64,000 nucleotides of DNA. Source: Planctomycetota bacterium. Its GTDB lineage: Bacteria > Planctomycetota > UBA8108 > SXIK01. Positions within the stretch are counted from its first letter, which is position 1. Each line of letters begins with the position of its first letter. Shown here one piece after another: positions 3-12,975 of this stretch. A program made the position numbers and the translations under genes. The DNA is taken from positions 4,256,001 to 4,320,000 of the forward strand of contig CBDCXR010000004.1 of NCBI GenBank assembly GCA_965223845.1. The letters run 5' to 3'. Below the pieces are notes generated by a model. The model saw only the letters and a program-made list of their open reading frames with translations. It ran no database searches and was not told the origin of the DNA.

Positions 3-278
3 GCTCACTCGCACGACTGGCCTTGCACTTCTTCCGAATCTCTGACGGAGTCCGTATCGCTTGCGGACACCCCGCCGTCCGAGACACGGATGGAATCCGA
101 CTGTCAGATTTGCCTGGCGCTCAGCACAGTCCGCCACTCCATTGTTGCTCCGAGTGGCTCGCGAACCCACACCCCCCTCGCCTCTATCTCCGCAAGGAGA
201 TTGATCACGTCACCAGACCTCTGGGTCTGCAGCTCGATCGATCTAAACCTTGCGGCGCCTCGGGCCCCTCCAGCCTGA
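3..278 (+). CDS. DUF2946/CruR/CutF-like leader peptide with RAPP arrest motif (5' end truncated by window edge)
   Basis: Frame is open from base 3: AHSHDWPC...SDCQIC...LAAPRAPPA*. It has HxH, CxxC and a C-terminal PRAPP, the DUF2946 hallmarks. The ORF track shows only 90..278. Confidence 0.8.
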   Translation, partial: AHSHDWPCTSSESLTESVSLADTPPSETRMESDCQICLALSTVRHSIVAPSGSRTHTPLASISARRLITSPDLWVCSSIDLNLAAPRAPPA

Positions 279-379
279 ATCTGATCGCTTGTAGTTGAGC
301 TCGACTCGCTGACCGAGCGCGGTTTGCCCGCGTGTCGACGGCGCGAGTTGAAAGCGCATGCGTTCAAGATTCACTGGAG
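268..379 (+). promoter_or_regulatory. Anti-Shine-Dalgarno RNA structure (putative translational attenuator)
   Basis: CTCCAG(cc)TGAATCT at 268-282 is complementary to AGATTCACTGGAG at 367-379, which contains the GGAG SD of the ATG at 388. Inner stem: TCGACTCGC 301-309 with GCGAGTTGA 343-351. Confidence 0.7.
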
Positions 380-387
380 ACTTCAAA

Positions 388-1002
388 ATGCCCTCGATTC
401 GCGAACAGCGGACGACGGTGCCATCGCGAGGCACGTCGAGCCGTTCCAGCGGACGGATCCGCGACGACCTAGTCTCGCGAGCCGTACGTGACCACCTAGA
501 CGTAATGCTCGCAGCCGCACGACGCGTACTTCCTAGCGATGATCTTGCCTGGGACGCAGTGCAAGAATCCCTCCAAGCGCTCTGGAAGGAAGGAGCCATC
601 AACACGCCTCTACGCGGTTGGCTGCTCCGAGCGGTTCGCCTCCGCGCTTTCCATTTGCTTCGGTCCGAGCGACGACGTCGCCAGCACGAAGCCGCGTGCG
701 CCTGCCTTTGCTGCCTGGTCGCCTACGATGATCCGGCTCGTCGAATGGAGAACCGCGAGCTTTTGAATCTGGCGGTGAAGGCTATCGAACGATTGCCCCC
801 AGCATATCGCAGTGTCGTCGAAATGCGTGACTGGCTCGACATGGACTACGCGTCCATTGCATTAGAGCTTGGCGTTCCCGTCGGTACGATCCGCTCGAGA
901 CTCAGCCGCGCCCGTGATCAGGTGCGCGCGGCACTCCGCCCGGCACTTCGACAAGGCCGGCGTTCGGGCGCAGGAGGGAGACCGGTCGCATGTCTGGCGT
1001 GA
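388..1002 (+). CDS. ECF (sigma-70 group 4) RNA polymerase sigma factor with Cys-rich linker
   Basis: Region 2 (AWDAVQE...LRGWLLR) and region 4 (LPPAYR...YASIALELGVPVGTIRSRLSRAR); linker HEAACACLCC; GGAG SD before ATG 388. Confidence 0.9.
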   Translation: MPSIREQRTTVPSRGTSSRSSGRIRDDLVSRAVRDHLDVMLAAARRVLPSDDLAWDAVQESLQALWKEGAINTPLRGWLLRAVRLRAFHLLRSERRRRQHEAACACLCCLVAYDDPARRMENRELLNLAVKAIERLPPAYRSVVEMRDWLDMDYASIALELGVPVGTIRSRLSRARDQVRAALRPALRQGRRSGAGGRPVACLA

Positions 1003-3047
1003 AGAAGCTCACCGGAGATGCGCTTGCTACCGGAGTCGCTCTCCTCGTCGCATCGATCTTCCCAGCTCCTTTGCAGGCGCAGGATCCGGGTCAAAGCGTC
1101 GCGAGGTCACTCATCCGCGGCACCTACGAACGAGTTTTTTTTCCCGAAGACGTCACCCGAATCGCGGTAGGTGACAAAGGCCTCCTGTCGTTCGAGCTGT
1201 TGAACACGCGTGAAGCTCTTGTTCTCGGTAAGGGTGTCGGACGAACGAACGTAGTCGTGTGGTACTCGAGCGGCGCGATCTCCGATCATCGATTCTCCAT
1301 CGAAGAAGATCTTTCCGTCTTGAAAGAGGCCTTGCGTGATCTCGACCCTCGGATCGCTGCGGAAATGGCCTCCAATCGTGCCGCAATCGTACTGCGCGGG
1401 GTTGTGCCCAATGCGATCGTCATGGAGCGTGCCGTTCGGGTCGCGGAGGACTACTTGGGCTCACGCTCGGGACGCACCCGCCGTCGAGGGCGCGGCGCGG
1501 GCACGACGGGCCCGGAGGACCTGGCTCAATCGCTGCGACTCATGGCCGATGCGATCGAGACGACCGATCGGCCTGCGGGAGAAACAGAGACCGTCGTAGC
1601 ATCGTCCACTCCCTCGCCGACGGCATCGGGAACTGTAATCAACCTGCTTCGAGTGGAACAGCCCCCAGAGACGACCGAAGAAAAAATACTCCGTGCGATT
1701 CAGCCTATCGCAGGTTCCGACGTCGCCGTCCGACGAGTCCTGAAAGGGGCGGTACCCGACGATGAGCGCGACGTGTTCGTGCTCGAGGGAAAAGTCGCCA
1801 ACCAGGTCGCGCTCGTACGCGTCTTGTCACTCGCAGCGAGAATCATCACCGGAAGATCTCTCCGCGGAGTGCGCGGCGAAAGCCTCATTCGGGTTCTCGC
1901 CGAGGAAGGCGGCGGCCTTTTCGAGGGAGGCGGACAGTCCGGCCAGGGCAATCGAAACCGCCAGAACTCTGGCGGTGCTGGACGAGGTGGTTCGGGATCC
2001 GGAAGGAGTGCTAGTTTTTTTCAGAGCGATATCGAGACGAATATCGCGCGCGCCAAGGCGCTCGATGTCGCCGACGGGCGCATCCTCTCTTTCCTAGAGG
2101 TTTCCGATCTCCCGCTCGTCCGGGTCAATGTTCAGTTCTACGAGGTAAATCGAGCAGAGATCCTCAACTATTCGTCGGACTGGGCCGCGTTCGTCTCGAG
2201 TTTCGAACAACCTGCGCTGTTAGGAGCTGGGTTGGCACCGGGATTTCAGTCGGCGCCGGCGAGTGTGGGGACCTTTGCCGCTACGGATATCCAGAATGTG
2301 CTCTCCTCGATCGGCGGCAACCTCGGCAATCAGTTCCAATTAGTCGACGACCATCTCGCGGTCGATACGGCGTTTTCTCTGCTTGAAGCGAAGGGTCTGG
2401 CACGACGGCTCTCCGCTCCGTCATTGACGGTACTCTCCGGTGAGCAAGCCGCGCTCTCCGTAGGAGGTGAAATTCCGATCCAGGAGATCTTTTCACCGGC
2501 TTTCAGCGGTGATGATTCCCCGGGCGTGTTCGGCTCTGTGCGCTTTCGGAGTTTCGGGATCTCACTCAATATGAGACCCCAGATCGACGAACGGGACATG
2601 ATCACGCTGGAGCTCGCTCCTACCGTGAGTCAACCGGATCAGCAGCTGACTTCGGTGCTTGTTGATACGACTGGAGCCGAGCAACCGACGACCGCCTTTC
2701 AGAGTCGATCGATGGTTACGAGCAGTCGGTTGAGAGACGGGCAGTCCCTGATGCTCGGCGGACTCGTATCGCGAGGCGACGCGCGTGACATTTCCCAGCC
2801 GCCTTTGATCGGTGATATCCCGCTTCTGGGCTGGTTGTTTCGCAACTTCGGCGAAACCGACGACGACCGCGAGCTGGTGATCCTCGTCAACCCGACGATC
2901 GTCAGAGAACCTATCCCCGAAATCGGCCTCTGGTCGTTTGCGAAACCGAGCGAACTTCTCGAATCAGCCGGACTTCGAAGACCCAGAGCCGACGGCGATC
3001 CGTCGGAATCGCCGCCGCACCTCGCTAAAGATCGGAGCGGGTCGTGA
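990..3047 (+). CDS. cpaC: Tad/Flp pilus secretin CpaC/RcpA
   Basis: Signal peptide; pilus-secretin N domain (RIAVGD...GRTNVVVW); secretin core (APSLTVLSGEQA..VGGEIP, FGISL, LRDGQSLMLGGL, P.IGDIPLLGWLFR, ELVILVNP). Confidence 0.9.
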   Translation: MSGVKKLTGDALATGVALLVASIFPAPLQAQDPGQSVARSLIRGTYERVFFPEDVTRIAVGDKGLLSFELLNTREALVLGKGVGRTNVVVWYSSGAISDHRFSIEEDLSVLKEALRDLDPRIAAEMASNRAAIVLRGVVPNAIVMERAVRVAEDYLGSRSGRTRRRGRGAGTTGPEDLAQSLRLMADAIETTDRPAGETETVVASSTPSPTASGTVINLLRVEQPPETTEEKILRAIQPIAGSDVAVRRVLKGAVPDDERDVFVLEGKVANQVALVRVLSLAARIITGRSLRGVRGESLIRVLAEEGGGLFEGGGQSGQGNRNRQNSGGAGRGGSGSGRSASFFQSDIETNIARAKALDVADGRILSFLEVSDLPLVRVNVQFYEVNRAEILNYSSDWAAFVSSFEQPALLGAGLAPGFQSAPASVGTFAATDIQNVLSSIGGNLGNQFQLVDDHLAVDTAFSLLEAKGLARRLSAPSLTVLSGEQAALSVGGEIPIQEIFSPAFSGDDSPGVFGSVRFRSFGISLNMRPQIDERDMITLELAPTVSQPDQQLTSVLVDTTGAEQPTTAFQSRSMVTSSRLRDGQSLMLGGLVSRGDARDISQPPLIGDIPLLGWLFRNFGETDDDRELVILVNPTIVREPIPEIGLWSFAKPSELLESAGLRRPRADGDPSESPPHLAKDRSGS

Positions 3048-4057
3048 TCCAGCTTCACCGTCGCGGCGCGCGAGAGTCGGGGGCCGCGCTGATCGAGTTT
3101 GCGATCGTCTCTCTCGCTCTGTACCTAATCCTCGCTGCGATCCTTACCTTCGGCTCGGCGATCTGGATCGGCCAGAATCTGCAGCAGGCCGTCGATGTCG
3201 GAGCGCAGGAGCTGGCACGGCTGCCGCTTGATCCGGACATCGATCTGGGCTGGGGCGATCTCCAGCAGGGCTGTGCTGCCCCGGAGGATGTGGAGGACTT
3301 CGCAGCGTGCGACGGTCGCGTCCTGGACGAGATCTACGACAAACAGTACCTCGTCATAACTCGCCAAGATATCTCGAATTCGAATATCGATCCCGACTCC
3401 CCCACCGCGCTTCTCGAGTACGCCGAGACGCTGCCGTTGATCAATCGATTGCTGATCCCGGTAATGATTTTCGATCGCCAGCATAGCGGCGGATCCTGGC
3501 GCTATCCCGGAGCCGTAGTGTTGAATACCGTGACGCCAGAGCCCGAAGAAACCGTGCTCGTTCCGATCGTCAGGAATGGCGAAATCCGTTGGGTCGCGCC
3601 AGTGGAAGAAGTTCGAGTCGATCACGACGGAGATTCGGCTACAGCTCCGGTCGGGCCCTTTTCGGTGCTCCCCCCGGAACCGACTCCTCCTGGCTTCGTC
3701 CCCGGAGTGGTGGCCCTTCGGATCAACTACCCATTCCAAAGCGCGGCGATGTCCGATTTCACGCCGAGCCCGGAAGGTGCCCTCGAGCCGAACCTCGATC
3801 GTGTCGTAACTGCGGACGACGCGTCGCTGACCGCGGGTGCAACAGGAGTCTACGCGCTTCAGGTCGCCGCGAACTCCTACGCGGACGGTGAGCCGAACAT
3901 CCACGGAGGTCGCTATGGTCTTGGCCGCCAGATCGCATTGCCATTCGATCGAGACTCGATTCGCACGTTTGGAGTTCGACCCTACCGGCGGATCCTGTCC
4001 GTGCAGGCGATCTACCGCCGCGAGGTCTTCGATTTCGGCCTCGGATCCACACCATGA
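3044..4057 (+). CDS. tadE: TadE-like pseudopilin with large C-terminal domain
   Basis: RESG|AALIEFAIV prepilin site, hydrophobic helix, then QQAVDVGAQELA; GTGA overlap with cpaC. Confidence 0.85.
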   Translation: MIQLHRRGARESGAALIEFAIVSLALYLILAAILTFGSAIWIGQNLQQAVDVGAQELARLPLDPDIDLGWGDLQQGCAAPEDVEDFAACDGRVLDEIYDKQYLVITRQDISNSNIDPDSPTALLEYAETLPLINRLLIPVMIFDRQHSGGSWRYPGAVVLNTVTPEPEETVLVPIVRNGEIRWVAPVEEVRVDHDGDSATAPVGPFSVLPPEPTPPGFVPGVVALRINYPFQSAAMSDFTPSPEGALEPNLDRVVTADDASLTAGATGVYALQVAANSYADGEPNIHGGRYGLGRQIALPFDRDSIRTFGVRPYRRILSVQAIYRREVFDFGLGSTP

Positions 4058-5316
4058 TTTCGCTACCGAAACCACTGCGCAGCCGAGAGGCCGGATCCGT
4101 ACTCGCGCTCTTCGCGATTCTTCTCTTCGGGCTCGTTGCGCTCCTGGCTTTGTCTATCGATACCGGATTCGTGCTACTGGCTCGCCGTCAGATGCAAGCG
4201 GCCGTCAACTCCGCCTCGGTCGAGGGTCTGCGCTGGCGCGATCGACTACCGCCTGTCGACGACTTGGTCGCTATCGGTGAGGATCCGAGTAACCCGGCAG
4301 AGCTCGAAACTCGAAAGGACGAGATTCGCCGCAAAATGGCGAGGCAATTCGTCCACGCCAGCTTCGATGTCGACTACGACGTAGGAAGCCCCGATCCGTC
4401 GACGGCCGTTCTCGGGGCCGGCCCGATGATCGGATTCGAAGGCGGGATCGATATCGGTGGCGGACTCAGAGCTTCCAGCTTGATTCGCCAACAGAATCCG
4501 AGGGCGTACAAACCAGCTCTCGCGCTGAATCTCGGTAATTCTGTCTCCGGAGACATGGTTTCCGGCGGCTATCTGGTGGACGGTTCGCGCGACGATTATG
4601 AGGACTTCCTCGACGTGAACGATCCGCCGGATGCCTTTCTCGTACGCCTCCGGCGGACAGACGAAGATCTTTCCTCGGCTCCGGACGCCAGCACGTCGGG
4701 TCCACCGATCCCCTCCCTATTCGGCAGGGCGGCCATCGCGCGCGCCGAGGAAGGCAATCCCCAGGCGCTACTTCAGCGTCGCGCGACTGGGGTTCGCGTT
4801 CGGGCGACGTCCATTGCCGATCTGAAACCCGCGGTCTCCGTCGGGTATTCATCGAACACGGACCGACCTGGAGTTCGCTACTTTGTCGACCGCTCGGTCT
4901 TCGACTGTTCCAATCCGACGATTCTCATCGACGAACTGGAGGTACCCCTCGATCCTCTGGGGCCACCCGTGCTCCCCTGTCCGTCGGGAGCGGGAGGAGC
5001 CGTCGTCCTTGGTGACTCGGTGGCGTCCCTCGTCCCTGCGGCACCTCCACTCCCTTCGGAGTCGTTCGTGGTGGCCATCTACGATTCGAGTGTTTGCCCG
5101 GCGGCGGCGGCAGATGTTGTCGTAGGCTTCGCGAACGTCAGAATCATCGACCAATCTGTCGTCCCCGCCGGCGATCTGGTCCTTGCGAACGGCTCCAGCA
5201 CCTTCGTTCGAAACTGCCAGCTCTCCGCGGACTGTTTCGACTCCTTGATCACGAACTGCTTTCAGCTCCAGGGGGCTGCGGTCAGAGCCCCAGCACGGGT
5301 GAGAGCAACTCGTTGA
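4054..5316 (+). CDS. tadG: TadG-like (Tad N-terminal domain) pseudopilin
   Basis: REAG|SVLALFAILL...LSIDTG...RRQMQAAVNSA is the typical Tad/TadG N-terminus; six Cys in the C-terminal part. Confidence 0.8.
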   Translation: MISLPKPLRSREAGSVLALFAILLFGLVALLALSIDTGFVLLARRQMQAAVNSASVEGLRWRDRLPPVDDLVAIGEDPSNPAELETRKDEIRRKMARQFVHASFDVDYDVGSPDPSTAVLGAGPMIGFEGGIDIGGGLRASSLIRQQNPRAYKPALALNLGNSVSGDMVSGGYLVDGSRDDYEDFLDVNDPPDAFLVRLRRTDEDLSSAPDASTSGPPIPSLFGRAAIARAEEGNPQALLQRRATGVRVRATSIADLKPAVSVGYSSNTDRPGVRYFVDRSVFDCSNPTILIDELEVPLDPLGPPVLPCPSGAGGAVVLGDSVASLVPAAPPLPSESFVVAIYDSSVCPAAAADVVVGFANVRIIDQSVVPAGDLVLANGSSTFVRNCQLSADCFDSLITNCFQLQGAAVRAPARVRATR

Positions 5317-5382
5317 CGGAGACGTTGGTCTTTTTGTCGAGTCCTTGGGAACTAGAGACGGTCCGGCGGCACTTCGACGCTG

Positions 5383-5904
5383 ATGACCAGCCCGTTTCTC
5401 GTTGACCGCTCGTTTAGTCGCCGACTCGACCGTGTCGGCATCGTCGTCTCGCTCGCCTGCGCGGCTCACTTCATTTCCGCGCCGGTGCTCCTGCTTGCCG
5501 CGCCCCTACTCGGCGGCCTGTGGGTGCACCCGGCTTCGCATGCGGTAATCGCTGCGTTCGCTCTGCCAGTGGCGGCGTTCTCACTACGGCGGGGATACGC
5601 CGTGCACGGCCGACGGTGGATCGCAGCAGCAGGCGCGCTCGGCGTCGCGTGCGTCGTACTCGGTGTGTTGTTGCCCGTGGCGACTGCGGCCGAACGACCG
5701 CCGGACGAAACGAATTTGAGCCGGTGCACGGATTGCTGCCCATCGATAGACATCGGGGCGGGGGCTGATTCCTGGTCACTTCGCATCCCTCCGGCGAGTT
5801 TCGTCAGCTTGATCGGTGGGATCGCCTTGGTCGCCGCGCACTTCGGGAATCTCCGTTGCTGCCGGAACTGCGGAAAAGCACGTGAGCGATCGTGTGAGCA
5901 GTGA
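5383..5904 (+). CDS. MerC-domain membrane protein with extra Cys clusters
   Basis: LDRVGIVVSLACAAH..P, H in helix 2, GYAVHGR, GG..LVAAHFGN match the MerC-family pattern; about 4 TM helices; extra CTDCC and CCRNC. Confidence 0.8.
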   Translation: MTSPFLVDRSFSRRLDRVGIVVSLACAAHFISAPVLLLAAPLLGGLWVHPASHAVIAAFALPVAAFSLRRGYAVHGRRWIAAAGALGVACVVLGVLLPVATAAERPPDETNLSRCTDCCPSIDIGAGADSWSLRIPPASFVSLIGGIALVAAHFGNLRCCRNCGKARERSCEQ

Positions 5905-6131
5905 CATCCGTGGGCGCGACAGCGCAGCTTTCGGCCGAGCGGGTCCGTTGGTGAGAGATTCGGTCCCCACCCGCGAGCAGGGTACAGAGGTTTCGACAGC
6001 ACGACGGAAGACTCAAAGAAGGAGAGTCTCGGAAATACCGGGAACTTCCTTCCGGCGAGCGGCACATCACACTCGAAAGGAGTGAAGTGCTCCTAGCCCC
6101 GTCACAACGATCCACAAGGAGGTTTCAAGAC

Positions 6132-6494
6132 ATGCGACAGAACATCCAACAAAGGAGGCGCGGAGCTGCAATGATCGAGTACGCCCTGCTCGTCGCGGGC
6201 GTCGTCCTCGTGGCCGCCGCTGCCACGGCAGTCTTCGGGCACAAGACGAACGACTTGATCTCTGGCGTAGCCGCTGTCCTTCCGGGTGCTCACGCAGACG
6301 ACAACGCCCCGATCGTCAGCGGCAAAATCATCGAGACGGCGCCCCAGGACCACGACGGGGACGCTGGAACGCCTGACGCCATCGCGCTCGATATCGACAC
6401 AATCGTTACCAACTCCGACGGCACGGTCGAGCGTCTCGGGAACCGCCTAGGTACGGCATCGAGCATCACGCAGCTGATCGTCGAGGCCGAATAG
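6132..6494 (+). CDS. flp: Flp/Fap pilin, long form (120 aa precursor)
   Basis: RRRG|AAMIEYALL Flp motif (G|xxxxEY); strong SD AAGGAGG upstream of ATG 6132. Confidence 0.88.
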   Translation: MRQNIQQRRRGAAMIEYALLVAGVVLVAAAATAVFGHKTNDLISGVAAVLPGAHADDNAPIVSGKIIETAPQDHDGDAGTPDAIALDIDTIVTNSDGTVERLGNRLGTASSITQLIVEAE

Positions 6495-6530
6495 CCCCGC
6501 GGCGACCAGTCTTAGACTCGAATTCGAAAC

Positions 6531-6570
6531 GCTCAAGGAGTTGCCCTCAGCCCAGGGCGACTCCTTGGGC
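6531..6570 (+). terminator. Strong hairpin after flp (terminator or mRNA stabiliser)
   Basis: GCTCAAGGAGTTGCCCT-cagccc-AGGGCGACTCCTTGGGC, about 17-bp stem with G-U pairs, followed by ATTGTTT. Confidence 0.6.
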
Positions 6571-6595
6571 ATTGTTTGCATCTCGGAGAAAGCAC

Positions 6596-7747
6596 ATGGC
6601 AAGACCGCGCAGAAGCTCGACTCCCTGGGTCGTCGTGACTCTTCTCTTGATCGGCGTGTACGGGCTCGCGGTCTACCTTCAGGTCGAGGGCTATCTGCGA
6701 TTGCCGTTCGAGCTGCCGCTCGTTTCCCAATTTCAGAGGGCTACTTCCGAGGGAGCGGTCGACGCACAGTCGAACGCGCGTGGAAAAATCGCGGTGCCGA
6801 TGTCTGCAGCAGATATTCCTGCCTACACAAAGCTTCGCCGAGAGCACATGTGGGATTCCAAGCGGGGCAGGTTTACCACCATTCTGTTGGACGAAGACGA
6901 CGTCCCGGCGGCCGTACTCCGAGATTTTTCCGAGATCGTGGGGCGTGTTCTCGACCATGACAAACCAGCAGGCTACGTGTTCACCGAGGACGATTTCTAT
7001 CCGAAGGGAACGCGAGAAGGGCTGGTCGCAGGGATCCCGCCGAACAAGATGATGTTGTTGGTCGAGGCGAACAAGGTGAAGGGGCTCTTCGGACTCAGGC
7101 CGGGAGATCGGTTCGACATAGTCCGCACGATCCCCGTCGATTCGAAGGGCGGCGCGGTGTCCCGAGAGACTGCCGGGCCCTACGGGGATCAGATCTCGCT
7201 CGCCATGAAGTTGTCCAACTGGGACAAGCAGGCTGAGGTCCGCGTTGTGGTTCGAGACGGCGTAGTGGTGACTCCGGTGAAGACGAGAGCCAAGCCGACC
7301 TCGAGTCAGAGCCTCACCAGAGGAGCCGTTGCCCGTTCCGTGCCGATCCAAGAGATTTATATCGCGGTTGCTCCCGAGGAAGCGGCGCCGTTGAGCGAGG
7401 CAATGGCGGTTGGTGCCGACGTGAGAGCGGTGATTCGATCGGGTCATGCTACCGTGCCTGCGAACATAGGCGTCTCGGATCTTCAACCACGCAATCCTCT
7501 CAACGACCTGATGTCGGCTTTGATCCCCGCCGACACGGCGTCTTCGAACGGGACGTTTAGGCCAGCGGTCGCAGGTTCGTTCCGACTCGTCGAACGCGTA
7601 GAAGACGGCCGACGTCAGCTCGTGACCGTTCCCGGTTTCGTAGATCGTCAGAACCAGGAACGGTGGGACGGCCAGATTCGCGTCGTCCCTGCTGCGGGTT
7701 CGCTCGACACCACGGAAAGCGGAACGCAAGGTGAGCGGGACGAGTAG
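6596..7747 (+). CDS. cpaB: Flp pilus assembly protein CpaB/RcpC (SAF domain)
   Basis: N-terminal TM; SAF-like AADIPAYTKL; GIPPNKM...GLRPGDRFDIV; IAVAPEEAAPL; position in tad operon. Confidence 0.85.
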   Translation: MARPRRSSTPWVVVTLLLIGVYGLAVYLQVEGYLRLPFELPLVSQFQRATSEGAVDAQSNARGKIAVPMSAADIPAYTKLRREHMWDSKRGRFTTILLDEDDVPAAVLRDFSEIVGRVLDHDKPAGYVFTEDDFYPKGTREGLVAGIPPNKMMLLVEANKVKGLFGLRPGDRFDIVRTIPVDSKGGAVSRETAGPYGDQISLAMKLSNWDKQAEVRVVVRDGVVVTPVKTRAKPTSSQSLTRGAVARSVPIQEIYIAVAPEEAAPLSEAMAVGADVRAVIRSGHATVPANIGVSDLQPRNPLNDLMSALIPADTASSNGTFRPAVAGSFRLVERVEDGRRQLVTVPGFVDRQNQERWDGQIRVVPAAGSLDTTESGTQGERDE

Positions 7748-7756
7748 GAATCGCCG

Positions 7757-9052
7757 ATGCAGATTCTGTTGGTTAGCTCTGATCCATCGCTCCGCGAGGA
7801 ATTCGAGGCCGCACTCGAAAACCTAAAGGAATTCAGTCCCTCCGTCCTCACGGCCGACAGCCCACGACAGGGGGTCGAGGTCGCACGGATTCGACGCCCA
7901 AACCTCGTCCTCATCGAAATGGACGCGAACGGAGGACGGCTCGACCGGTTCGCGTCGGAAATCTCGGCCCACGCACCTCGCACTCTCATCGGCGCGGTGT
8001 ATCGCGCAGACGTGCTCGGGTCAGGAAGCTCGGAAACCGCAATCATCTCGGGCGTTCGAGCCGGCGTGAGCGACTTTCTTCGCCGCCCTCTTTCCAGTGT
8101 GGAAATCGAGCAGTTGCTCATTCGCGCGCGGCACCGAAACGCGCGCCAGGCCCCGGTCGCCCGAGGCCTCATCGTGTCGGTTTCCAGCACGAAAGGAGGG
8201 GTTGGAAAGTCGACGCTCGCAGTCAACAGTGCATGCCTTCTCGCGCGCCGCGCGCCCGGGCGAGTGCTGCTTGTCGATGCATCCCTTCAGCTCGGCGTGT
8301 GCGCACGAATGCTCGACCTCGAAACGAAGACGACCATCACCGACGCGACGCAGGAACTCGATCGGCTGGATCCCACGCTACTGCGTGAGTTGGCGCTCCA
8401 CCACGACAGCGGGCTGCATCTCCTTGCGGCGCCCAAGGATCCAGTCGGCTCGACGGAGGTGAACGACGAGGCTATCGCCCGTGTCTTGGCGACTGCGCGT
8501 CAAGCCTACGAGTATGTCGTGGTCGACACCTTCCCACTTCTGGAATCGGTGGTGCTTGCCGTGCTCGATCTCAGCGACCTCGCCTACCTCGTCTTTCAAG
8601 GCACGGTTCCCTGCGTCCTTGGCCATGTCGGATATCTTCGGGCGCTTGAGAACGTCGGAATTGATGTGAATCGACAACGTCTCGTGTTGAGTCGAAACCA
8701 CGCGCGGTTTTCTGGTGATCTGTCGCTCAGCGATATCGTCCGCAAACTCGGTCGCGACATCGATCACGTCATTCCGTACCAACGGCGCATACTGAGCTCC
8801 ATGAACACTGGTGAACCCTACGTGCTGCGACACCGAGGATTATTCGGGTTCGGACGCGCAGTGCGGAATCTTGTTCACGAAATTGTTCAGGAGCGGGAGG
8901 CTCAAAGCATTAACGGAGATCAGAAGAACGCGCACTCATCCGAATCCTCCCCCGCGGATCACGCCGAAGGAGATTCTGTCCGAGTGCGTGAACCAGATTT
9001 CAGAGCTCCACAGCAGCAGGGTTCGACTCGCTCATCGGAGGTTAATCAATGA
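7757..9052 (+). CDS. cpaE: CpaE/TadZ (receiver domain plus ParA/MinD-like ATPase)
   Basis: N-terminal receiver-like domain; deviant Walker A KGGVGKST; YEYVVVDT. Confidence 0.9.
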   Translation: MQILLVSSDPSLREEFEAALENLKEFSPSVLTADSPRQGVEVARIRRPNLVLIEMDANGGRLDRFASEISAHAPRTLIGAVYRADVLGSGSSETAIISGVRAGVSDFLRRPLSSVEIEQLLIRARHRNARQAPVARGLIVSVSSTKGGVGKSTLAVNSACLLARRAPGRVLLVDASLQLGVCARMLDLETKTTITDATQELDRLDPTLLRELALHHDSGLHLLAAPKDPVGSTEVNDEAIARVLATARQAYEYVVVDTFPLLESVVLAVLDLSDLAYLVFQGTVPCVLGHVGYLRALENVGIDVNRQRLVLSRNHARFSGDLSLSDIVRKLGRDIDHVIPYQRRILSSMNTGEPYVLRHRGLFGFGRAVRNLVHEIVQEREAQSINGDQKNAHSSESSPADHAEGDSVRVREPDFRAPQQQGSTRSSEVNQ

Positions 9053-10479
9053 GCGGCGCGAACGACACGAGTGACACGGAGGCGTCGATCCGGGACCGGA
9101 TACGGTCTCAAGGACGAGAAAAGCCGGTTCGGCTTCGAAAGAAAAGATCCGATGAGTCGCTCTCGGATCGCTCCCGAACGAACGTGCGGTCGACAGTGCC
9201 CGCCTCGGCGACGGACTACGTGGCGATCAAAGCCGGACTCCAGCGACGTCTTCTCGAGGAGATCTCCGAGCGCAACGTTCTGAACGAATCCGATGATGCG
9301 CTTGCGGGGGCGGTCGACGAGTTCGTCTCTCGGGTGCTCGAGACAGAGAAAATCCCGCTCAACCGAAGCGAACGGGACCGTCTTGCCGACGAACTGCGCG
9401 AGGAAACGACCGGTGCGGGACCGCTGGCTCCGCTCATGGCAGATCCGGCGGTGACGGACATCCTCGTAAACGGTCCGCGTAAGGTGTACGTCGAGAGATT
9501 CGGGCTCCTCGAGCGAGCCGGTGTGCAGTTTAGAGATGCCGAGCACATCGTTCGGGTGATCGAGCGAATCGCGGCTCGGATCGGGCGGCGTATCGATGCG
9601 AGCGCACCGCTCTTGGATGCGCGCTTGCCCGATGGTAGTCGTGTCAACGCGACGATCCCCCCGATTTCCATCGATAGTCCGACGATCTCGATCCGCCGTT
9701 TCGGTCAGCGTCGCCTCCGCTCGCAGGACCTTCTTCAACTGGGGATGTACTCGGTCGACATGATCGAGTTTCTCGCGCATGCCGTGAGAGCTCGAATGAG
9801 TGTCCTGGTCTCGGGCGGGACCGGCGCCGGAAAGTCCACACTGCTCGGAGCTCTCTGCGAGTCTATTCCGGATCTCGAACGAATCGTAACGATCGAGGAT
9901 ACGGCCGAGTTGCTGCTTGACCAAGAACACGTGGTGCGCATGGAGAGTAGGCCCTCCAACACCGAAGGGCGAGGCCGCATCACGACGCGAGATCTTGTCA
10001 TCAATTCGCTCCGGATGCGTCCGGATCGCATCATCGTCGGAGAGGTCAGGGGCGGCGAAGCTCTAGATATGCTTCAGGCTCTCAACACGGGCCATGACGG
10101 TGGTCTCTCTACGATCCACGCGAACTCCCCGCGGGATGCCTTGTCTCGTCTCGAGACCATGGTGTTGATGTCGGGGCTCGATCTGCCGTCTAGGGCCATC
10201 CGCGAGCAAATTGTCGCGGCCCTGCGATTTGTGGTGCACGTTCGTCGTTTCGAAGACGGAGTGCGACGAGTCGAGAACGTATCTGAGATCGTTGGCTTGG
10301 AGGGCGCAACGCCCCTCCTCAACGAGGTGTTTCGTTTTGAGCGGCGCGGCTTCGAACGCAATCGCGTGATGGGCGCGTACCGACCCACGGGTATCGTTCC
10401 GAGGCTCGTCGACGAGTTGGGCCGCCGCGGCGTCAAGATTCCCGTGGACATGTTCCAACCTCCGCAGGAGAGAACATGA
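9049..10479 (+). CDS. cpaF: CpaF/TadA pilus assembly ATPase
   Basis: GGTGAGKST, TIEDTAEL, LRMRPDRIIVGEVRG, NTGHDG.STIHAN. Confidence 0.95.
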   Translation: MSGANDTSDTEASIRDRIRSQGREKPVRLRKKRSDESLSDRSRTNVRSTVPASATDYVAIKAGLQRRLLEEISERNVLNESDDALAGAVDEFVSRVLETEKIPLNRSERDRLADELREETTGAGPLAPLMADPAVTDILVNGPRKVYVERFGLLERAGVQFRDAEHIVRVIERIAARIGRRIDASAPLLDARLPDGSRVNATIPPISIDSPTISIRRFGQRRLRSQDLLQLGMYSVDMIEFLAHAVRARMSVLVSGGTGAGKSTLLGALCESIPDLERIVTIEDTAELLLDQEHVVRMESRPSNTEGRGRITTRDLVINSLRMRPDRIIVGEVRGGEALDMLQALNTGHDGGLSTIHANSPRDALSRLETMVLMSGLDLPSRAIREQIVAALRFVVHVRRFEDGVRRVENVSEIVGLEGATPLLNEVFRFERRGFERNRVMGAYRPTGIVPRLVDELGRRGVKIPVDMFQPPQERT

Positions 10480-11339
10480 CGCACCCCGCCCTCTGGTTGA
10501 CCGGACTTGCCGGAATCAGCTTGATCGTGGTGGCCGTTCGCCGCCGGAGCACCTACAGAACTGCCCTAACTCAGCTGACGCGGGACGAGGTCGAGGAAGA
10601 CCGGTTTCAAGACGAGCAAGAGACCGCCCCACGACCTGCCCTATCGCCTCCCAAGCACTGGGTGGCAGTCGCCCTGTCGCTTTCGAGCGGAGCGGTGTTG
10701 TATCTCGTCGCTGATTTGCCGATCGTCTTCGCGATTACACTCTCCTTGATCGTCGGCATAAGTGCGTTCGTTGTCGTCGAGTCAGTTCGTGAAAGAAAAC
10801 TACTACGTCTCGAAAGGCAACTGGCGGACACGGTCGATCTGCTCGTCGCATCTCTTCGAGCCGGAGCAGGGATCATGGACGCACTAGAGGATGCCGTGCG
10901 GGAATCGAGAAGACCGCTGCGGGGAGTCCTGGAGGCGACTCTCACACGACTACGCTATGGAGATTCACCGCACCGGGTATTCAGCGAGTTCGCGGAGTCG
11001 ATCTCGCTCGAATCAGTACGACTCTTCTCTCTCTCCTTGTCTGTTCACTGGGAAGTCGGCGGCAGCCTTGCGTCGAGCCTCTCTAGCGTCGGACGCTTCA
11101 TCAGGGACCGCGTCGAGGCTCAACGCAGCGTCTCCACGCAGGGCGCGCAGGTTCGGGCGTCAGTGATCGGCGTGACTCTCGTCGCGTACTTTATTGCCAT
11201 CATCGTTTGGCGGTCACGGCCCGACGCCATGGCTGCGTTTCTTACGACAACCGTGGGGACTTGGCTGACGTCGGTAGCTCTCATGCTTCAAGCATTGGGG
11301 CTGTTCTGGATGTTCAAGCTAAGCCGCATTCGATACTGA
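10476..11339 (+). CDS. tadB: TadB inner-membrane platform protein
   Basis: T2SSF-like: QLADTVDLLVASLRAG, EVGGSLA; follows cpaF. Confidence 0.88.
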   Translation: MTHPALWLTGLAGISLIVVAVRRRSTYRTALTQLTRDEVEEDRFQDEQETAPRPALSPPKHWVAVALSLSSGAVLYLVADLPIVFAITLSLIVGISAFVVVESVRERKLLRLERQLADTVDLLVASLRAGAGIMDALEDAVRESRRPLRGVLEATLTRLRYGDSPHRVFSEFAESISLESVRLFSLSLSVHWEVGGSLASSLSSVGRFIRDRVEAQRSVSTQGAQVRASVIGVTLVAYFIAIIVWRSRPDAMAAFLTTTVGTWLTSVALMLQALGLFWMFKLSRIRY

Positions 11340-11353
11340 CAGGAAACGCTCTT

Positions 11354-12271
11354 GTGAACGACGCCGTCGTATGGCTGACAGCCTCCGCGGGCGTAGCGCT
11401 GCTCTTGATCGGGATATGGCGCTCGCGAGGGCGACAACCGATCCGAGCAAGGCTTTTCGAGGACGATTCCGCCCCCTCGCTGCCTCCCCCTGTCGACGTA
11501 GCCTCTTCAGCGCCATTGGATTCGTGGATCAGCCGGTGGCTTTACGTTGCCGGGTTCAGACACAGACGATCGACCACCGTTTTTCTCCTCTGGGCCGCGT
11601 TTGCGGCGTTCGTCGGTGGGATGGCCGGCTACGCGCTACAGAGTTCGGGGTTCCTCGATCTGGGTGCGCAGTGGCTCGCCGAAGTTCCTGGAGGACTTGG
11701 CGAGCTCTTCCTTCCGGCGATCGTTCTGGCGCCTTGGATTGTCTTCGCGATCGTGTCGTCGATCCCATGGCTCCACGTGAGAGCGTCACGCCGGCGAATT
11801 GTGAACGAAATCGAGCAAGATCTGCCCATAACGGCGGAGCTCCTCGCAACCCTCGGCGAGGCGGGGCTCGGGTTCGACTCGGCCGTCGACCGAATCCTCG
11901 CCTCAAAACAGAAGCACCGCGCATTGGCATCCGAGCTCGGTGCGTTTCGGCGAGATCTTTTGGCAGGACTTCCTCGCATCCAAGCTCTTCGCCGGCTTGC
12001 GGTTCGCGTTGATCTTCCGGCTGTATCGACAGTCGTTTCGGCTCTCGTGCAGGCGGAGCAGGTAGGAGCAGGGCTCGCGAGCGTGCTCCGGAACGAAGCT
12101 GACGACTTGAGAAACCGTCGACGCGAGCGGGCTCTTCGCGTTGCGCAGGCGTTGCCGGTCAAGCTCACCGTGCCGCTAGTCCTCTGTTTTTTCCCGGCGA
12201 TCGTCATTGCGGTTCTGGGCCCTACGTTCTTCGAGATCTTTCAGATGCTCGAAACTTATCTGGCTCGCTGA
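11354..12271 (+). CDS. tadC: TadC inner-membrane platform protein
   Basis: EAGLGFDSA, ALVQAEQVG, PVKLTVPLVLCFFPA; GTG start after AGGA. Confidence 0.88.
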   Translation: MNDAVVWLTASAGVALLLIGIWRSRGRQPIRARLFEDDSAPSLPPPVDVASSAPLDSWISRWLYVAGFRHRRSTTVFLLWAAFAAFVGGMAGYALQSSGFLDLGAQWLAEVPGGLGELFLPAIVLAPWIVFAIVSSIPWLHVRASRRRIVNEIEQDLPITAELLATLGEAGLGFDSAVDRILASKQKHRALASELGAFRRDLLAGLPRIQALRRLAVRVDLPAVSTVVSALVQAEQVGAGLASVLRNEADDLRNRRRERALRVAQALPVKLTVPLVLCFFPAIVIAVLGPTFFEIFQMLETYLAR

Positions 12272-12282
12272 GCGGGGAACGA

Positions 12283-12975
12283 ATGAACGAATCAGGCTCC
12301 TACTTCAAGTCTCTGCTCTTGCGAGCATGCACGGCGGCCGTTCTCGGGGCGTATAGCGTCGCCTCCGGTTGCGCCACGATGACGCTCGAAGGGCCAGACG
12401 ATCCGGCTAGCGAGCTGAGATCGCTGCTCGACGAGCTCGAGTCCCGCACAGACGAGGGCAACCATGGAGAGGACGCAAGGCGAAGGCTCGCCAGGCTCTC
12501 GGCCAAGTATCCGCGCGACGTCGACATCCATCTAGCGAATGCAGTGTACGCAGCGCAGGACGCGGATCCCGCCGGTGCGAGGTTCCATCTCGACGCGCTC
12601 TTTCGCATCGTTTCCGTTCATCCAGAGGCTGCACTCCTTCGAGCTGAGCTTGCGATGAAGGAAGGAAACCTCCCGCTCGCGTTGCGAGTACTCGACGAAC
12701 AGATTCGTCTCGTCCCCGATCATCCTGGCTTACGCGAGACCCGTGGATCGGTGTACTACTTTCGGGGCGAATACCGAGCCGCTTGGGAGGAACTGCAGCG
12801 GGCTTTGAGCCTCGGCGCGCCTGGTTGGCGAGTGGCTTATCACAAAGGCTTAGTAGCCGAGGCGGAGGGGAGGTCCGAGGACGCTCGGACGCTCTACGAA
12901 AACAGCCTCCGTCTGAATCCTGACTTCCAACCCGCTGCGTCGCGCGCTCGCGCGCTAAGCGAGGCTGGGGAGTAG
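12283..12975 (+). CDS. TPR lipoprotein, TadD/pilotin-like
   Basis: Lipobox-like VASG-C; several TPR repeats; last gene of the tad operon. Confidence 0.75.
   Translation: MNESGSYFKSLLLRACTAAVLGAYSVASGCATMTLEGPDDPASELRSLLDELESRTDEGNHGEDARRRLARLSAKYPRDVDIHLANAVYAAQDADPAGARFHLDALFRIVSVHPEAALLRAELAMKEGNLPLALRVLDEQIRLVPDHPGLRETRGSVYYFRGEYRAAWEELQRALSLGAPGWRVAYHKGLVAEAEGRSEDARTLYENSLRLNPDFQPAASRARALSEAGE

Follow-up and report, generated by a model that had tools for sequence, protein, structure and literature searches.

Does a small gene that ends in the codons for Arg-Ala-Pro-Pro (RAPP) control the sigma factor gene behind it, through the ribosome that translates it? This question is raised by the beginning of a 64,000-nucleotide stretch of the genome of a Planctomycetota bacterium (G000:C4:4256001-4320000; the whole stretch is called the window below, positions are counted from its first letter, and G000 is its genome). 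Here, a leader open reading frame (ORF) that ends at position 278 is followed by the gene of a predicted extracytoplasmic function (ECF) sigma factor at position 388, and this in turn by a tad pilus locus. The original prediction for this site was that a ribosome stalled on RAPP covers a sequence complementary to the Shine-Dalgarno (SD) sequence of the sigma gene, and in this way switches sigma translation on. In the SecM-secA and MifM-yidC2 systems, a stalled ribosome disrupts a helix that hides the downstream SD, with the stall site in or beside the 5' arm of the helix, and both SecM and MifM respond to how active the protein-export machinery under their control is. We found the proposed mechanism to be plausible: comparative and literature evidence supports it, and it matches published biology. 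The best explanation of the locus would be an arrest leader similar to CruR and CutF, which belong to a class of metal-responsive arrest peptides, stalling at RAPP and unmasking the sigma SD, and we favour it with a little better than even confidence.

The leader ORF is complete and ends in RAPP

We observed that the leader ORF is complete. It encodes a protein of 141 aa (P0001) and starts with an ATG at G000:C4:4255853, 147 nt upstream of the window (window -147; position 1353 of L001, the local stretch that includes the sequence upstream of the window). The 3' 276 nt of the coding sequence fall within the window (frame 3, 1-278; this and all other features of the window described here are on the + strand). 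The start region and the C-terminus are shared with two close homologues, P0003 and P0004. A frame with no start codon upstream of the window had been named as a ground for giving up the mechanism, and this concern is removed, since the ORF is complete and has a hydrophobic N-terminal segment. The original prediction had also pointed to the upstream sequence as the place to look for a signal peptide. Residues 19-37 (LIALVSALAILGQAVLPLL), encoded upstream of the window, have a mean Kyte-Doolittle hydropathy of 2.36 and are preceded by K9, R16 and R18; by composition this segment reads as a signal peptide or signal anchor. The leader was also considered as an anti-sigma factor. This was rejected, as the stretch before the membrane segment is only 18 residues long and Pfam showed no anti-sigma domain in the protein.

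The frame ends in AAPRAPPA-stop, with R at 261-263, A at 264-266, P at 267-269, P at 270-272, A at 273-275 and the stop codon TGA at 276-278. RAPP (CGG GCC CCT CCA, 261-272) therefore occupies residues 137-140 of the 141. A CxxC motif (C84-Q-I-C87, codons 102-113) lies 49 residues before R137.

The leader is the first gene of its predicted operon: the upstream gene is divergent, and the intergenic region to the sigma gene is 109 nt long. A promoter-like element, TTGACC-17-GAGAAT, ends 6 nt before the leader ATG (L001:1318-1346, window -182 to -154), and it is conserved, as TTGACA-18-GAGAAT-6-ATG, in a metagenome contig, L062 (upstream of L062:1803). Since the element ends so close to the ATG, the leader mRNA may be leaderless or nearly so, with almost no 5' untranslated region. 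The divergent ORF (L001:92-739, - strand, upstream of the window) encodes 215 aa with an N-terminal signal-like segment, and belongs to no Pfam family.

The arrest codons pair with the Shine-Dalgarno sequence of the sigma gene

When we examined the region between the two genes, the helix of the original prediction was recovered pair by pair. Positions 268-282 (CTCCAGCCTGAATCT) are complementary to 367-379 (AGATTCACTGGAG), with six plus seven Watson-Crick pairs and a 2-nt CC bulge. The pairing extends to 283-288 (GATCGC) with 360-365 (GCGTTC) at five of six positions, and an inner stem, 301-309/343-351, forms nine out of nine pairs, one G-U among them. The 5' arm (the anti-SD; CUCCAG, CC bulge, UGAAUCU and GAUCGC, 268-288) includes the leader stop codon, while the 3' arm (360-379) includes the SD itself, GGAG at 376-379, 8 nt before ATG 388. 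Intergenic hairpins at 290-358, which include the inner stem, bring both arms together. The 3' end of the 16S rRNA, obtained with an Rfam SSU search of the genome, is canonical (...CACCTCCTTT, containing CCUCC), and GGAG is therefore a credible Shine-Dalgarno sequence.

RNAfold of 240-400, the check proposed with the prediction, returned exactly this helix in both the minimum free energy (MFE) and the centroid structure (MFE -58.2 kcal/mol, z = -1.97; 3 of 200 shuffles were as stable). An SD predicted to be unpaired had been put forward as evidence against the mechanism; in both structures the helix lies over GGAG.

For comparison we followed the helix in G000, in the metagenome contig L062, in the genomes G005 and G016, and in more distant sigma-linked loci. 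P0003 and P0004 were compared at the protein level only, outside this RNA-level set, and one locus with a leader and an unclear sigma start (L037) was left out of the folding. In G000, the SD window (-16 to -4) had a probability of 0.61 of pairing with a 42-nt window around the arrest codons, a value reached by one of 60 dinucleotide shuffles of the arrest window. The duplex of 255-290 with 360-387 had an energy of -24.0 kcal/mol.

The choice of codons also contributes to this pairing. Among genomic 36-mers centred on CCNCCN, only 0.14% of 5000 paired equally well with the real SD region, and among 5000 synonymous recodings of R-A-P-P-A weighted by codon usage only 1.8% did so. With unweighted recodings (1536 variants), the figures were 7.3% for G000, 6.3% for L062 and 0.5% for G005. 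CCT and CCA are the two rarest proline codons of the genome (9.6% and 11.8% of Pro codons), and the pair CCT-CCA accounts for 2.5% of the 12,188 Pro-Pro dicodons in long ORFs.

With codon 267-269 in the P site, 268-282 falls at +2 to +16 from the first P-site nucleotide. We simulated a stall by making 30 nt around the P site unpairable, and the mean accessibility of the SD window rose from 0.38 to 0.55 in G000, from 0.37 to 0.62 in L062, from 0.37 to 0.55 in G005 and from 0.16 to 0.53 in G016. No intrinsic terminator was seen on the + strand of the intergenic region, where no T-run follows the inner hairpins, and an Rfam scan of L001:1200-2100 gave no match at E<=1.

The helix is conserved in part

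In L062 the pairing probability was 0.61 and in G005 it was 0.58; three of 60 shuffles and none of 60, respectively, reached these values. CUCCAG, formed by the Pro-Pro-Ala codons, and CUGGAG before the sigma ATG are invariant in G000, L062 and G005. The second helix segment reads GAAUCU/AGAUUC in G000, GAAUCGU/ACGAUUC in L062 and AAUCGUG/CACGAUU in G005. The pair behind GAAUC is U-A in G000 and G-C in L062 and G005, which is one two-sided (compensatory) change. The rest of the G005 intergenic region has diverged, and in G005 the arm of the second segment is coding (…ASIV-stop), whereas in G000 and L062 it consists of the stop codon and intergenic sequence. Of the covariation that the original prediction looked for in homologs, the one compensatory pair was seen in these three sequences; in G016 the pairing did not rise above shuffles, and the helix is absent from five of six distant loci.

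We also evaluated ten planctomycete leader loci with no sigma gene behind the leader. In four of them (L066, L073, L077 and L011) the pairing between the SD and the arrest window was reached by at most three of 60 shuffles. SD masking by arrest codons therefore recurs in the phylum, though it is not universal.

The leader is a remote relative of DUF2946 proteins

The leader aligned with the Pfam profile PF11162 (DUF2946) at E 0.02, over profile positions 2-117 of 117, in a per-protein hmmscan, whereas a six-frame search of G000 with the same profile gave no match at E<=0.1. P0003 and P0004 are 69% and 53% identical to P0001, and they have the C-terminus LNLAAPRAPPA in common with it. In an alignment of 16 planctomycete leaders (one metagenome, otherwise genomes), no variation was seen at the start Met, at one His, at both Cys of CxxC, or at the R, P and P of R-x-P-P. 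Eight of the 16 matched PF11162 at E<=0.1, the best at 2.1e-5.

A profile built from the 16 leaders found 550 proteins at E<=1e-3 among 1.84 billion representatives. Of the best 149 new matches, 144 carried R[AG]PP at most 12 residues from the C-terminus (110 RAPP and 34 RGPP), with a CxxC-RxPP spacing of 43-49 residues and modes at 43 and 46. The same range was seen in 14 related loci; in length it is comparable to the published spacing of about 45 residues, and it is wider than the published tolerance of one or two residues. When the best 50 of the 149 were scanned with Pfam, 28 matched PF11162 at E<=0.01, 13 of them above the gathering cut-off. As the matches of this profile include bona fide DUF2946 proteins, the leader appears from its sequence to be a remote, CruR/CutF-like member of the DUF2946 superfamily.

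Some candidates were discarded on the way. Three weak matches of the genome search (L005, L006 and L007) were not family members on inspection, and four loci picked by the RxPP filter (L032, L035, L042 and L061) were dropped for want of a CxxC leader.

Comparison with known arrest peptides

CruR (Bp2923) of Bordetella pertussis is a DUF2946 protein encoded by an upstream ORF, and expression of the transporter gene behind this ORF needs its RAPP (Roy et al. 2022, PMC9426467). Its CxxC is required for copper control and lies 45 residues from RAPP, a distance conserved within one or two residues. The mechanism proposed there is that stalling at RAPP blocks Rho-dependent termination and that copper relieves the stall, and the second half of the cruR gene has an unstructured patch with more C than G. 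The paper also reports "a few" homologues in Planctomycetes (PMC9426467 for all of these). CruR also arrests in the PURE system, where its two Pro codons occupy the P and A sites (EMBO J 2025, PMC12992588).

Our leader has much in common with CruR. Both are small ORFs in first-gene position; both have an N-terminal segment for export (predicted here) and an invariant CxxC, and both end shortly after RAPP. The distance from CxxC to RAPP is of the same order in the two, and a long structured intergenic region follows each of them. The two also differ. CruR controls a TonB-dependent transporter; the leader in Planctomycetota would act on an ECF sigma gene together with a tad locus. Its CxxC-RAPP spacing is 49 residues, against 45 in CruR, and one residue follows its RAPP, against three in CruR. 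CruR is linked to Rho-dependent termination, and the main text of PMC9426467 describes no SD-masking helix.

In CutF of Rhodobacter capsulatus, stalling depends on copper and opens a stem-loop over the SD of the next gene (Ozturk et al. 2023, PMC9973294; bioRxiv 10.1101/2025.02.05.636593). CutF is likewise a DUF2946-like exported leader, and the melting of an SD-shielding stem-loop by a stall is the logic proposed here. However, the cysteine motif of CutF is CxxxC and its proline-rich motif is another one (RAPP does not occur in PMC9973294), its stem-loop is described as intergenic whereas the 5' arm here consists of the arrest and stop codons themselves, and its target is a multicopper oxidase. 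The main texts of the CruR and CutF papers mention neither sigma factors nor pili as targets.

Work by Sakiyama in 2021 and by Morici and Fujiwara in 2024 is said to have described ApdA and ApdP as arrest peptides with RAPP/RGPP, and the Apd proteins reportedly monitor Sec or YidC. Our leader resembles ApdA and ApdP in its C-terminal RAPP/RGPP core and in being a small secretory or membrane protein upstream of a regulated gene. In leaders that monitor Sec or YidC (SecM, MifM, VemP, ApdA and ApdP), the gene behind the leader belongs to the protein localisation machinery; the genes downstream of ours, for an ECF sigma factor and then a Tad secretin, encode neither a Sec nor a YidC component. With SecM and MifM our leader would have in common a stall that disrupts an SD-sequestering helix from a site in or beside the 5' arm; here, however, the regulated gene is that of a transcription factor and the sensor motif is CxxC. 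The arrest motif of SecM is RAGP (PMC9426467, PMC12992588).

Arrest is published for CruR, ApdA and ApdP. RAPP and RGPP are described as the strongest arrest cores, strongly avoided in bacterial proteomes unless used for arrest, and as enriched towards the C-terminal end of small secretory proteins whose genes precede a variety of others. SLIV_33595 and SLIV_33605 of Streptomyces lividans are RAPP/RGPP peptides upstream of ECF sigma genes (all PMC12992588). These Streptomyces peptides are predicted proteins with four transmembrane segments and, unlike our leader, are not CxxC/DUF2946-like.

Proposed mechanism

From the sequence, the predicted helix and its position relative to the stall codons, the family membership and the partial conservation, all shown above, we infer an arrest, a metal response with its direction, and an effect on sigma output, which could be linked as follows. 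The nascent leader would probably be targeted to the membrane by its N-terminal hydrophobic segment. At R-A-P-P, the peptide bond between Pro139 (as peptidyl-tRNA, P site) and Pro140 (A site) would then fail to form, and the ribosome would arrest. The toeprints of CruR and ApdA suggest, by analogy, a stall in which CCT 267-269 occupies the P site and CCA 270-272 the A site. In this position the ribosome would cover roughly nt 252-284, with 268-282 inside the mRNA channel, so that the helix could not form. GGAG 376-379 would be free for as long as the stall lasts, and ribosomes could translate the sigma gene and, probably, the tad secretin gene whose start overlaps it. On relief of the stall, translation would terminate two codons later, the helix would re-form, and sigma synthesis would fall.

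The CxxC would be just outside the exit tunnel during the stall, because it lies 49 residues upstream of the Arg, and it probably senses a metal (copper) and thereby adjusts the length of the stall. Targeting to the membrane, or pulling by the translocon, may also influence this length.

Alternative explanations

Several observations weigh against this mechanism, and they concern the family, the helix and its conservation in turn. The PF11162 score of the leader, 16.1 bits, is below the gathering cut-off of 23.7 bits, and CruR, the characterised relative that bears RAPP, works by Rho-dependent termination and not by SD masking. Random segment pairs of the same geometry are at least as stable as the duplex in 15.7% of 5000 cases, so that in this genome of 65% GC its energy is unremarkable, and Pro-Pro codons of the form CCU-CCN are inherently complementary to a GGAG-type SD. 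The simulated stall opens the SD only in part. The helix is carried by three sequences only, with a single compensatory pair, and there are mismatches beside the bulge, U.U in L062 and C.A in G005. In G016, most of the SD pairing involves codons 5' of RGPP, and it is matched by 29 of 60 shuffles. Of the six distant sigma-linked loci that were folded (intergenic regions of 220-370 nt), five had a pairing probability of at most 0.16, with L045 (0.59) as the exception. Finally, a C-rich, G-poor patch that could be a Rho-loading (rut-like) site is present in the leader gene (153-195).

The last point, and the case of CruR, would fit transcriptional control instead. In such a scheme, a ribosome stalled at RAPP blocks the loading or tracking of Rho, RNA polymerase reads into the sigma gene, and release of the stall leads to Rho termination in the 109-nt intergenic region; the SD helix would be secondary or additive. 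Among RAPP-bearing DUF2946 members, a dissected mechanism is known for CruR alone, and it depends on Rho (PMC9426467). The best 30-nt window of the leader gene has 18 C and 2 G and lies 117 nt before the stop (C minus G = 16), whereas a C minus G of at least 14 was found in only 3.3% of 3000 random 426-nt segments. G005 has a window with 12 C and 1 G at a similar position. The sigma-linked loci with long intergenic regions lack the SD pairing, and another mechanism must therefore operate there. However, the position of the patch is not conserved in L062 or G016, and a C-rich patch alone is weak evidence. Control by Rho also leaves unexplained the rare Pro codons and the conserved, compensated helix over the SD. 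We therefore consider it unlikely as the principal mode of control at this locus, although it deserves serious attention; SD masking and Rho termination are not mutually exclusive.

The leader could also be nothing more than a metal-binding protein that is exported, such as a chaperone, and play no role in cis; the SD pairing would then be a by-product of the complementarity between Pro-Pro codons and purine-rich SDs in a GC-rich genome. This would agree with the stability of random segment pairs given above, and with the finding that at eight of the 15 loci tested the pairing did not rise above shuffles (more than three of 60 reach the observed value). CutF, moreover, was once proposed to be a copper chaperone (PMC9426467). 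We nevertheless regard this as improbable. What the family conserves is CxxC, RxPP and their spacing rather than a fold, and the helix is conserved with a compensatory change and built on rare codons. The CruR and CutF proteins are reported to be undetectable or short-lived, and cutF complements only within the intact cutFOG operon (PMC9426467, PMC9973294). The strong avoidance of RAPP/RGPP in proteins that do not use it for arrest also speaks against a protein with no regulatory function (PMC12992588).

Least probable, and in our judgement very much so, is a helix that acts independently of any stall, as a constitutive translational damper, an element of mRNA stability or processing, or simple coupling at a distance: a ribosome terminating at TGA 276-278 would also cover the 5' arm, and leader translation alone would then open the helix, but the invariant R-x-P-P and the fixed CxxC spacing are left unexplained, and RAPP is needed in the published family member (PMC9426467).

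The sigma factor and the tad locus

The sigma gene (388-1002) encodes a protein of 204 aa. The product matched the Pfam families Sigma70_r2, r4 and r4_2, all above their cut-offs, and TIGR02937 with 56 bits against a cut-off of 42.9; by these matches, it is an ECF-type sigma-70 factor. ATG 358 was tried as an alternative start and rejected: conservation of the N-terminus (MPS.../MSP...) begins at ATG 388, and no in-frame ATG lies further upstream in L062. No anti-sigma gene was found adjacent to the sigma gene among the neighbouring ORFs searched with Pfam, and control at the level of sigma synthesis is therefore plausible.

Between regions 2 and 4 the sigma factor has a patch, H-x3-C-x-C-x2-C (HEAACACLCC, residues 100-109, window 685-714), that is invariant in the three sigma orthologues aligned. 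Its residues suggest that the sigma factor may have a metal or redox site of its own, and a search with this pattern led to 49 planctomycete loci with sigma relatives. A CruR-like leader lies directly upstream of the sigma relative in nine of the 49 Planctomycetota genome loci. A secretin gene follows the sigma gene in 20 of 50 loci examined, and the full triple of leader, sigma factor and secretin was seen only in G000, G005 and G016 among these 50.

At four loci (L021, L033, L045 and L047), the gap between leader and sigma gene is 220-370 nt and the ORF after the sigma gene has a pilin-like N-terminus. In three of these (L021, L033 and L045), this ORF matches DUF1559 and the N-terminal methylation motif, and is not a secretin.

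In the window, the sigma gene is followed by a gene for a CpaC/RcpA-type secretin (990-3047, identified by domain search), whose start overlaps the end of the sigma gene. The rest of the tad pilus locus, which is complete, extends from the TadE-like through to the TPR protein over 3044-12975. By domain search it encodes TadE-like, TadG-like and MerC-like proteins, a weak RcpC/CpaB-like match, a CpaE-like ATPase, the CpaF ATPase, two TadB/C-like proteins and a TPR protein. The MerC-family membrane protein gene (5383-5904; Pfam MerC, E 5.9e-19) is a second metal-related element near the leader. G005 has a copy that is 48% identical, about 12 kb downstream of its leader on the same strand and contig. 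With the same query no copy was found in G016, an 82% complete genome.

Leaders elsewhere in the phylum

In a sample of 401 Planctomycetota genomes, we observed a leader match at E<=1e-4 in 16. The genes behind these 16 leaders were varied, and included those for secreted proteins of about 450 aa with no Pfam family, an ABC ATPase, a DUF1559 protein and, as judged from its N-terminus, a protein like the binding proteins of metal ABC transporters. At eight loci (L010, L011, L012, L066, L071, L073, L075 and L076), a CruR-like leader stands before the gene of a secreted protein (about 420-480 aa) that occurs repeatedly. Of these proteins, those at L010, L011 and L012 were scanned and gave no Pfam match. 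This may be an uncharacterised metal-related protein of the outer membrane or periplasm.

Meaning for the family and the phylum

The leader belongs, as a remote member, to the CruR/CutF class of metal-responsive arrest peptides that has already been described (2022-2025). The design is published, and the locus opens no new principle. An ECF sigma factor that lacks an anti-sigma factor and takes its input from translation arrest also has a partial precedent, in Streptomyces (PMC12992588). As far as our literature searches reach, an ECF sigma factor heading a planctomycete Tad pilus locus has not been described before as a target, and the locus appears to combine a RAPP core with SD masking of the CutF type.

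A wider picture may be drawn for some Planctomycetota, which we put forward tentatively and with somewhat less than even confidence. In these bacteria, an ECF sigma factor with no partner anti-sigma factor would get its input from the translating ribosome. A metal-sensing CxxC...RAPP leader would stall on codons that also serve as the anti-SD of the sigma gene, and metal status would in this way directly set sigma synthesis and, through it, the expression of Tad pili or pilin-like genes and attachment to surfaces. With the recurrence of this design before unrelated genes (four of the ten loci tested), it would be a lineage-wide alternative to the Rho-based system of CruR. If the locus in the window works as proposed, the CruR/CutF class would be extended to a phylum where it has been noted only in passing, and would gain a new type of output, a transcription factor at the head of a Tad pilus locus instead of a copper-handling protein. 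It would also gain a hybrid mechanism, with a CruR-like RAPP core and CutF-like SD masking, and ECF sigma factors would have an input route that needs no anti-sigma factor.

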